In this document: positions 15,001 through 18,000 of the stretch, piece after piece
Position numbering within the stretch: position 1 is the stretch's first letter
Layout: each line of letters starts with the position of its first letter
Assembly (NCBI RefSeq): GCF_056712565.1
Contig: NZ_CM160072.1
Direction: 5' to 3' (one strand)
Length of the DNA: 64,000 nucleotides
Made by a program: the position numbers

Positions 15001-18000
15001 CCGGGATTCAGCGCCTGTACCCGCACTCAGTTAATAAACAGCATCGATATCCTCCGGGCTCGCAGGGCGACCGGCCTGATGACCCGCGACAATTACAGAA
15101 CGGTAAATAACATTACCCTGGGTAAGTATCCGGAGGCGAAATGATGACACTGGAAGCCGACAGCGTTAACGTACAGGCGCTGGATATGGGGCACATTGTC
15201 GTTGACATTGATGGTGTTAATATCACTGAACTGATTAATAAGGCCGCTGAAAACGGTTATTCACTCCGCGTGGTGGATGGCCGTGACTCTACCGAAACAC
15301 CGGCAACTTATGCCAGCCCTCACCAGTTGCTGTAAGACAATGCAGTGATACAGGGTATAGTGCCATTAACCACAGAAACAGCACTGTTGTCCTGTATTAA
15401 GCAGGCAAGAGAAGATGTCCTTACCCTGCGCCATCTGCAGCTTCTGCACCAGAACCGGTGAATCTCACTCAACAGGCTTCATTTCCCCTGACGCCAGCCT
15501 GAATACAGCTGGCGTTTTCATTTATAAACAGAAAGGAAAACCGATAATAATGGAATGGACGCCCCGACCATGAAGCAACGGTAGGATATTACTGATAAAC
15601 CTTCCAGTGGAGGTGCGTTATGGCCGTTTTAACGATTAGCATTGACCTGACAAAAAATGAATTCCAAATCCACGGTCTGGGTAGGAACAGAAAAATCTAA
15701 GCTCAGAAAACGGATTAAAGTAAGCGTCAACGGAGCACCGTATTGACGCTTATTTATTGGTGAGAACTACGTTCCATGGCAGGAGTTCGTCAACACGGTT
15801 GGAGGGCCATTCCGGCAGTATGCTCAGAATATGGCGCAGATACGCTTCCGGATCGATACCGTTCAGACGGCAGGTGCCTGCTTTTCCGGCAACAAGCAGG
15901 AATCTCAGCGCTGAAGCAGGAATTAGAGGTAAAAACGCCCTACCGGGCCATGAATCACCCGGTCATTGGAGTAGTAACCAAAGCAGATTTAGCCAGCATG
16001 GAACAAATATCTTTGGTGAAAAGTTGGTTACGGGAAGCTGGAGCGCACAACGTGTTAGTAACCAGTGCAGTTAATAACAATGGAGTTACAGAACTTTTTG
16101 CCTTGCTGCATACAGAAGAAGGCTGTTGTTAATTTCGATTGGTTCTCAGATGAGAATGATGACGGTGATACACAGATAAGAATCAATGAGCAATGAGGGT
16201 TGCCGGGCAACCCTCATTGAATAAAACGGGAATTACTTCGCTTCGCCGTTTTTCATTTCGCCCATAGCTTTCAGCTTTTTGGAGATATCGCGGCGTTCTT
16301 TGGAGAGCTCGGCATTTTTGATGATGTAATCGTCAACGCGATCTTCATAGTCACCTTTCATGCTGGCGATGATGCCCTGGATTGCTTCAACGCTCATCCC
16401 TGGCTTGATGTAATCGCTCAGGTTGTCCAGCAACAGGACGCGCTTCTGGTTGTCACGGATCTTTTTCTCAACGTCCTGAATTTCACGTTGCAGTTTGTTC
16501 TTACGACGGAACAGACGAACAAATTCCAGTACGTCCTGGAATGAAGGCTTGGTAGTTTCCATTTTTATACCCCTGATAATGTGAGAGTCGGATTCGTTTA
16601 AGCAACCGCTATTCGTTAGGGCCAACATTACTCATAGCTGCCGCAGATGACAATGCTTTTATCCCTTTTCACTATCATACCCTTTATCCTTGCTGAATCG
16701 AAGCAGCAGCAAGATGATTCTGAAGTTCAGGAATTATTTGCGCAAGGCCCGGCAAATCAGATTCGATAGCAACTCAAGCTGATGTGCCGTTTCCATGTTC
16801 AGCCACACATAACCATAGATTGGTGTTTCCACGACTTTCAGATCATGGTGGTTATCGAGCAACTGACGCAGCTCTTCCACAGCATCGTTCAATTTTTCCG
16901 TATTGGCAAAAACCGGCTGCGGATTACCTTCGTACAGCGCATGAACAAGGCTCAGCAGTATTTGCTGCATCATGTGCTGGGTATCACGAAGTTTTTGCGC
17001 GTTCAATAACACGAAATGGCTGGGGCGCGTGGCCCAGTATGCATTGATTTGCAACTCCAGCATACAAACCAGATTGCGATTAATGGTCTGGATACCTTCA
17101 TATATCGATTTGGGAATACGGGTTTCTTTGCTGGCGGGCGCAATCAGCCCACGCATTTTCACGGCATCGGTCAGCAGTTTTTGTAGATGGCTTTCCAGAC
17201 GTGGGCGTTCGAGTAAGTTCGGTGAGAATGCAGATTGATAGACCCGATTATACTCGGTCAGACTTTTCGCCAGTTGAATGCGCCAGTGGATGAACGCCCG
17301 TTGTGGCCAGATACCGGTAAACAACATTGCCAGTAAAGAGCCGAGGATCACATCGCCGCTTCGCCATAACGCCGTATCAATTTCACCTGTCGGGGAACCC
17401 ACAACAATTGCCAGCGTCACCCCAATCAATAATCCTTGATACGGTTTCTTGCCCAGCGCCAGCCAACCGCAAAGAAACATCGCCGCCGCGCACCAGACTA
17501 ACATCAGCGGTAACGAAATTAACTCCAGTTGCAGAGCGATAAGACCTAAAATCGAACCCAACACCGTACCGCCAATACGTTCGAAGGCACGAGGGACAAC
17601 GTTCCCCCAGAACGAGATTGGCCCCATAATCACCACCATGGTGACCAGCGGCCAGGTGCTTTCCGGGATAGTAAACAGGCGGATAATGAGAAAAGTGAGC
17701 AGGAATGCCAGCGCGACCCGAGTACCATGCACAATGCGGTAATGGCGGTATACCCGGATTTCAAACGGGCTTAATGACTTATCGGCACGCACGCAGAAAC
17801 TCCGTAATGAAGATTAAAAGCGCTCATAACACATCTGTCGGCCAGAAGGCGCGCCTCTGAGTTATCCGACGGACATACCGGGAACAGTGTAATTTCCCGG
17901 CAGGAGCGAAAAATTTGAAAGGCGCATCTTACTCTTTTCGCTTTCAAAAAAAGAGTGGTCTTCGCGTCAACACACCGCCCTGAGATGAATTAGTGATGTT

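Follow-up and report, generated by a model that had tools for sequence, protein, structure and literature searches.

Between yeeW and tmaR (yeeX), the Escherichia coli chromosome passes from an island into core DNA. What are the short reading frames of this interval derived from, is any of them still a working gene, and where does the island actually end? An earlier note on the window (by which we mean the whole stretch of 64,000 nucleotides analysed here) had described a 26-codon ORF resembling a transposase N terminus, a hairpin followed by a T-run, and a 118-aa ORF of which only the C-terminal half looks like a small GTPase, and had interpreted them together as former island genes in decay. 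All of these features, as well as the flanking genes, are present at the positions reported for them. We consider that the interval is, with high probability, the scarred right junction of the CP4-44/PAI-cobU island with the chromosome, which was built by successive insertions and deletions and contains no working gene.

The locus and its blocks

The annotation in RefSeq and EcoCyc identifies the locus as the yeeW–yoeD–yoeF–tmaR (yeeX) junction of E. coli, with cbtA-yeeW on its left and tmaR (yeeX)-yeeA-sbmC on its right. The left-hand island is the cryptic prophage CP4-44 in K-12 and the 43-kb PAI-cobU in ExPEC strains; the published listing has it under the name PAI-CFT073-cobU (PMC7545054). 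Over positions 15100-16400, the window shows 100% identity to CFT073, Nissle 1917, UTI89, 536 and numerous further E. coli genomes, and it differs from K-12 MG1655 at 4 of 1301 positions. yeeW, the DUF957 pseudogene, yoeD and yoeF are already annotated in RefSeq or EcoCyc, and the interval of about 900 bases is ordinary pseudogene debris that is already known. Our analysis adds the exact mosaic, the chromosomal (pdu) origin of the GTPase-like piece and the position of the boundary. From left to right, the blocks are the truncated yeeW, the DUF957 3' fragment with a spacer, a stump of an IS110-family element, the end of an IS66-family element, a DUF4942 fragment, and pduV codons 88-147 (Table 1). 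The minus-strand IS66 fragment and the DUF957 and DUF4942 fragments go beyond what the earlier note had described. All genome counts given below were taken among 5426 complete genomes.

Table 1. Features of the yeeW–tmaR interval, in window coordinates
Feature	Position	Strand	Basis or remark
yeeW, truncated DUF5983 gene, 64 aa, N-terminal domain only	15141..15335	+	Pfam DUF5983_N, E = 2e-29; RefSeq
DUF957 3' fragment, last 30 codons	15369..15461	+	RefSeq pseudogene 'DUF957, missing N-terminus'
DUF957-DUF4942 intergenic spacer, with hairpin 15490-15516 and then a U-rich run	15462..15548	+	82-88% identity to sister-island spacers
IS110-family left end (71 bp) and about the first 33 codons, frameshifted	15549..15719	+	Synteny with the long form; 171 bp
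26-codon ORF	15620-15700	+	Real start of IS110-family transposase, inside the stump
ISEc23/ISEc47-like IS66-family terminal 159 bp (K-12 yoeD)	15720..15878	-	Plasmid alignments, Pfam, K-12 yoeD coordinates
IS66 end: tip GTAAGCG	15720		
IS66 end: subterminal palindrome	15718-15755		
IS66 end: last 43-45 transposase codons and stop	15750-15878/87		
yoeF, 118-aa ORF, chimera	15776..16132	+	ORF list and block boundaries
DUF4942 fragment, about codons 38-61, 71 bp, in frame with the pduV part	15879..15949	+	Sister-island and L011 alignments
Island/core joint, ATGAATCA	15950..15957	+	Common to DUF4942 (ATGAAACA) and pduV (ATGAATCG); alignments overlap here
YoeF peptide across the chimera joint, ...KTPYRAMNHPVIG...			
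pduV relic, codons 88-147 and stop, EutP/PduV-family GTPase	15950..16132	+	Alignment to intact pduV; Pfam
Hairpin with 13-bp stem between convergent pduV relic and tmaR	16191..16219	.	-21.8 kcal/mol, z = -4.9
tmaR (yeeX)	16233..16562	-	First intact core gene, RefSeq annotation

Fragments of the island tail and of insertion sequences

In strain C5, plasmid A bears a sister island (L008) in which the tail is preserved in intact order: a CbeA-type antitoxin, CbtA, DUF5983 (162 aa), DUF957 (65 aa), a spacer of 85 bp, DUF4942 (281 aa) and more genes. The CP4-type tail module (CbeA, CbtA, DUF5983, DUF957, DUF4942) has the same order in the window at 76-85% DNA identity, and all three genes downstream of cbtA are truncated there. 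The similarity of yeeW to the full-length sister gene stops at 15279, and the DUF957 fragment shows 85% DNA identity to L008 3417-3585. Pfam returned a match neither for this fragment nor for the full-length sister DUF957 protein, and the family label therefore rests on RefSeq. The DUF4942 protein of L008 was recognised by the Pfam DUF4942 profile (E = 1e-68), and the fragment in the window is 76% identical to L008 3704-3783, inside this gene (E = 2e-12), so that window 15879-15957 corresponds to DUF4942 nucleotides 121-200. The same fragment is 98% identical to L011, in which the gene begins at its own ATG.

The suggestion of the earlier note that the 26-codon ORF is a transposase N terminus proved correct on the basis of synteny rather than of statistics over 26 residues. 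Pfam and NCBIfam found nothing for the 26-aa ORF alone, even at E <= 10, and the proposed tblastn comparison with IS110-family transposases gave 60% identity over 25 aa to their N-termini at an E value of about 0.5. The ORF was the best match of an IS110-family protein from a Klebsiella plasmid when the whole window was translated in all six frames (E = 0.0014, with a protein chosen post hoc from the tblastn matches), and the two align Met1 to Met1 with the shared N-terminal motif IxIDLxKNxFQIHG. When the IS110-family proteins of IS621 and ISEc20, which were not picked by similarity, were compared with the six-frame translation of the window by phmmer, the 26-codon ORF was not matched. The resemblance is limited to a single IS110 subgroup. 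In strains N137 and 20.1 (L011 and L012, which we call the long form), the same DNA runs uninterrupted from the same ATG into a 1029-nt pseudogene annotated in RefSeq as an IS110-family transposase, which settles the identity of the ORF as a genuine IS110 start.

The IS110-family element of the long-form strains, about 1370 bp in length, is placed exactly before the DUF4942 ATG, and it is itself frameshifted with internal stops. We stitched its translation across the frameshift before the Pfam search and obtained Transposase_20 (PF02371) with E = 1e-10 and DEDD_Tnp_IS110 (PF01548) with E = 2e-6, the latter at 28.3 bits against a cutoff of 29. Transposase_20 is deleted from the window, and other strains keep it in the long form. 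The stump itself (15549-15719, 171 bp) is single-copy in 4048 of the 5426 genomes, and no intact close relative of the stump was found in the plasmid collection, by a distant DNA search with 15462-15719, or in the E. coli genomes. A search of 15300-16300 and of the long-form IS110 element with Rfam yielded no match to any known RNA family, bridge-RNA-like ones included.

The block that follows is read from the opposite strand. The minus-strand peptide GKAGTCRLNGIDPEAYLRHILSILPEWPSNRVDELLPWNVVLTNK, ending at the stop (15750-15878/87), matches DDE_Tnp_IS66_C (PF13817) with E = 5e-16 and 59 bits against a cutoff of 30, and the transposase pseudogene of RefSeq and K-12 yoeD are both this IS66 piece. 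The equation of the 26-codon ORF with K-12 yoeD that the earlier note suggested was thus mistaken. Positions 15716/20-15878 are 98.8-99.4% identical to ISEc23, ISEc47 and related IS66-family ends on hundreds of plasmids. The matches from unrelated contexts all start at 15716-15720, and the plasmid matches always terminate at 15878. The sequence GTAAGCG, which we take to be the start of IS66-family inverted repeats, would mark the tip of the element at 15720, and an intact ISEc23 copy (L007 3501-3663), which matches at the same level of identity, has the same tip, GTAAGCGTCAACGGAGCACCGTATTGACGCTTATTTATTGG. The element in the window is incomplete, with the homology to ISEc23 ending after 159-163 bp.

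The hairpin of the earlier note is real and belongs to this IS66-family end. It folds on the plus strand with -19.8 kcal/mol (z = -5.0, with 0 of 200 shuffles as stable), is followed there by AUUUAUU, and reaches -17.6 kcal/mol on the other strand. A stable hairpin on both strands with such a run behind it could suggest that 15718-15762 is a functional intrinsic terminator, insulating the core genes from island transcription. We regard this function as unlikely, because the canonical terminator scan of 15300-16300 reported none and because the palindrome, present base for base in the intact ISEc23 copy, is integral to every ISEc23-type IS66 end and hence was not shaped by this locus. There are also better terminator-like hairpins nearby, namely the one in the spacer (-16.1 kcal/mol, z = -4.7) and the one at 16191-16219. 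The inverted repeat of the latter matches itself in every locus compared and is conserved in all junction states, and it is likely to be the shared terminator of the pduV relic and tmaR. The hairpin at 15718-15755 is best viewed as the subterminal palindrome of the IS66-family end, located between the tip and the transposase stop, and probably not as a local terminator.

The GTPase-like piece and the island/core boundary

As the earlier note had claimed, the 118-aa ORF (yoeF) is GTPase-like only in its C-terminal half. PduV-EutP (PF10662) matches yoeF only at residues 57-112, at profile positions 86-142 of 143 (E = 6e-13), and no profile matched the first 58 residues; intact E. coli PduV covers positions 1-142 of the same profile. 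The TIGR02528 score of yoeF is 42 bits, with the cutoff at 138. Residues 1-34 of the ORF run antisense to the IS66 transposase, residues 35-58 come from DUF4942, and residues 59-118 come from PduV. The P-loop GxxxxGK[ST] and the DxxG switch motif, which in intact PduV are GPSQCGKT at residues 8-15 and DTPGE at residues 42-46, both lie in the first 87 PduV codons and are missing here, and the guanine-specificity motif [NT]KxD (G4) is kept as TKAD at yoeF residues 68-71. Without the P-loop and the switch regions, the PduV part of yoeF presumably cannot be a GTPase.

In the long form, DUF4942 codons 1-61 continue in frame into PduV codon 88, resulting in a 121-aa protein (WP_001282181.1) that RefSeq names "EutP/PduV family". 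One could argue that yoeF, or this DUF4942(1-61)::PduV(88-147) fusion, is a functional chimeric small protein under selection, since the fusion is in frame, the ORF is open in >4000 complete genomes, and RefSeq and EcoCyc give a CDS for yoeF or the long-form fusion, with K-12 yoeF among the annotated CDSs. We find this explanation very improbable. The P-loop and switch regions are absent, the N-terminal third is wholly different between the short form (antisense IS66) and the long form (DUF4942), many nonsynonymous changes have accumulated in island-free strains, which also show a stop at codon 89, and the within-species identity of yoeF is what neutral drift would be expected to produce. Compared with intact pduV, the relic of the window and of K-12 has 3 nonsynonymous and 2 synonymous codon changes, and the relics of the island-free strains have 6 versus 0 and 7 versus 4, including the above stop; these small counts would fit relaxed constraint. 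The in-frame fusion and the frame open in so many genomes are compatible with chance and are no proof of non-function. Slimmer still is the chance that the DUF4942::PduV fusion is translated and has a function of its own, as a chimeric gene born at the island/core deletion joint. We infer that yoeF is an accidental reading frame over three unrelated pieces, and nothing in the interval looks functional.

The origin of the PduV piece becomes apparent from pdu-positive genomes. In FDAARGOS_1260, an intact pdu operon ends with full-length pduV (147 aa), which stands immediately upstream of tmaR; the 100-bp spacer and the hairpin between pduV and tmaR are the same as in the window, which is 97.4% identical to this genome from 15950 onward. 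The locus of FDAARGOS_1260 consists of cobTSU, a hypothetical gene, a cobalamin (B12) riboswitch, pocR, pduF, pduA..pduV and tmaR. In Salmonella, pduV is followed by pduW and pduX. The comparisons show that this arrangement is the ancestral E. coli locus, which about 12-15% of the complete genomes retain; the 5' half of pduV was found in 644-816 genomes. The window contains no pdu genes upstream of yoeF.

Genomes without the island carry the relic as well. In EC_T6 and an O157:H16 strain, cobU is followed by a 181-bp spacer and then by the pduV relic from 15956-15958; this spacer corresponds to the stretch of pdu-positive sequence next to cobU, and a CGYCCG microhomology marks the joint. It was previously reported that yoeF adjoins cobU in island-free STEC strains (PMC5359238). 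JNEC-KY179 represents a third state, in which a longer cobU-side stretch is joined to pduV codon 49 with a 5-bp overlap. These junctions show at least three losses of pdu in E. coli, with endpoints that differ. The segment 15890-16700, which includes the relic, occurs as a single copy in 5417 of the 5426 complete genomes. Because the pdu-positive locus has pduV at this place, the island-free genomes carry the relic, and the relic is single-copy, the GTPase-like fragment is a remnant of the ancestral chromosomal pdu operon and not an island gene.

K-12 yoeF is listed among the CP4-44 prophage genes (PMC11551758), and the start of its ORF does lie in island and IS DNA. Both facts would agree with the view that all of the fragments, including the GTPase-like one, are decayed island genes and that the core does not start until the yoeF stop codon has been passed. 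We give this view hardly any credence, as genomes without the island and genomes with pdu already refute it: the fragment shares 97-99% identity with the chromosomal pduV 3' end and the DNA downstream of it is identical, it stands beside cobU in genomes without the island, and it is single-copy, whereas other island tail genes recur at several places per genome. Nor is a gene of this kind found behind DUF4942 in the sister island. The decay of former island genes proposed in the earlier note accordingly holds for the graveyard of fragments at the right edge of the island, but not for the GTPase piece, which the pdu-positive and island-free genomes identify as a chromosomal pduV relic.

With the relic assigned to the chromosome, the sequence ATGAATCA at 15950-15957, with its ATGAA, represents the microhomology of the illegitimate-recombination joint. 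The CP4-44 feature of K-12 ends at the equivalent of 15949, coinciding with this joint. Judging from these alignments, the true island/core boundary lies inside yoeF, at 15950-15957.

Order of events and comparison with known systems

On the cobU side, the left flank of K-12 follows the pdu-positive sequence 109 bp past the island-free joint, and in island-bearing strains the island replaces the region from this point to pduV codon 87. We rejected an insertion of the island into the island-free cobU-pduV' joint, because the K-12 flank has the 109 bp that island-free strains lack. The island-bearing state therefore did not arise from the island-free one, and both derive from a pdu-positive ancestor. 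The long form is found in about 693 genomes, and the short form, to which the lineage of the window including K-12 and CFT073 belongs, in 3334. In the window, the 159-bp IS66 end stands in place of L011 2658-3968, which comprises the remaining part of the IS110 element along with DUF4942 codons 1-37.

These states could be connected by four steps. Illegitimate recombination would first have fused the island tail, within DUF4942, to pduV codon 88 at the ATGAA microhomology. The insertion of a roughly 1.37-kb IS110-family element exactly before the DUF4942 start codon, and the decay of this element, would have come next, resulting in the long form. Subsequently, an ISEc23-like IS66-family element may have inserted into the IS110 element at about codon 33, and a deletion from inside the IS66 element into DUF4942 could finally have removed about 1.3 kb of long-form sequence together with most of the IS66 element, leaving the short form. 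This order is the most economical one that we infer from present-day states rather than from phylogeny. We found no genome with a complete ISEc23-like element at 15719/15720, and the insertion and subsequent deletion of the IS66-family element are therefore a reconstruction.

We rejected strain 1223 as a possible intermediate linking the long form to the short one, since its IS66-family element is a different one and occupies another position within the same IS110 pseudogene. Its insertion shows a 9-bp overlap, which suggests a target duplication, and it is an independent event and the sole such case of an IS66-family element within the IS110 element that we examined.

We also observed that, on the right, the island fusion (endpoint 15950-15957) and the island-free deletion (endpoint 15956-15961) are only 0-11 bp apart, although their left endpoints are separated by 109 bp. 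This closeness may be a coincidence, may reflect a local hotspot, or may mean that the island-free state arose from an island-bearing one by a larger deletion.

The value of these results is chiefly for annotation, and they otherwise matter little. It is routine to assign yoeF to the CP4-44 prophage genes or to call it an "EutP/PduV family microcompartment protein", but it is actually a three-part chimera whose GTPase-like part was left behind by the lost pdu operon of the chromosome. The locus also illustrates neatly how IS insertions become nested and how microhomology mediates deletions.

Each piece can be compared with the complete system from which it derives. Compared with ISEc23/ISEc47, the window has kept the tip, the subterminal palindrome and the C terminus of the transposase at 99% identity, but only about 6% of the element is left, without tnpA, tnpB, most of tnpC and the other end. 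Among IS110-family (DEDD) transposases, the long form matches both family domains, PF01548 just below its cutoff, whereas the window retains 171 bp only. With PduV of the propanediol-utilisation microcompartment operon, 57 of 60 residues are identical between yoeF 59-118 and PduV 88-147, and the position of yoeF upstream of tmaR is orthologous to that of pduV in pdu-positive strains, although the pdu operon itself is absent here. The closest counterpart is the yoeD/yoeF pseudogene pair at the CP4-44 end of K-12. The alignment with K-12 that the earlier note had proposed shows the same locus with the same features at the same offsets, apart from the four differing positions mentioned above. The island is about 43 kb in the strain of the window (B2-type) versus 12.7 kb in K-12; otherwise, there is no substantive difference between the two.

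Joints within pduV and the shared hairpin

Two joints were compared at the pduV relic, the island::pduV fusion and the island-free cobU::pduV deletion. Their pduV endpoints lie 0-11 bp apart, although on the left the two endpoints are separated by 109 bp. The near-coincidence within pduV may reflect chance, a hotspot, or origin of the island-free state from one that bore the island. In strain JNEC-KY179, pduV codon 49 is fused to cobU-side sequence with a 5-bp overlap, leaving a relic of 297 nt; this joint is a third, independent state of pdu loss. The hairpin, which has a perfect 13-bp stem and separates the convergent pduV relic and tmaR, is kept in every junction state. 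It is probably a terminator common to both, and this may be the reason why the 3' end of pduV survives every deletion.

Coordinates of junction features
Feature	Source	Position
Hairpin	window	16191-16219
Joints compared	window	15950-15961
	EC_T6 (L004)	5992-6004
	L010	3440-3561
Third pdu-loss joint	JNEC-KY179 (L015)	4990-5010
IS110-family element	N137 (L011)	2487-3856
	window counterpart	15549-15719
Interrupted IS110 pseudogene	1223 (L014)	1653-2570
pdu-positive locus	FDAARGOS_1260 (L003)	5740-6183
	FDAARGOS_1260 (L013)	28635-32162
IS621 in yeeA	EC_T6 (L004)	7390-8370
	JNEC-KY179 (L015)	6514-7494
yoeJ	K-12 (L002)	4428-4478
	corresponding window interval	16563-16733

The decayed IS110-family element

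The long form in strain N137 comprises approximately 1370 bp, with only 71 bp upstream of the ATG and approximately 270 bp downstream of the pseudo-CDS. An Rfam search of this element matched no family, bridge-RNA-like models included, and searches of E. coli genomes and plasmids turned up no close relative that is intact. In strain 1223, the IS110 pseudogene is interrupted by another IS66-family element with 66% identity to ISEc23, inserted 135 bp deeper in the same pseudogene, where a 9-bp overlap resembles a target duplication. IS66-family elements struck the decayed IS110 at least twice.

Core flank and the pdu-positive locus

On the core side, yeeA is split by IS621, itself of the IS110 family, in EC_T6 and JNEC-KY179. 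The small protein gene yoeJ (16 codons) is annotated in K-12 between tmaR and yeeA.

In the pdu-positive FDAARGOS_1260, the interval from cobU to the B12 riboswitch/pocR is without cbi genes. Here pduV is the last gene of the operon, directly before tmaR; in Salmonella, pduW and pduX come after pduV.
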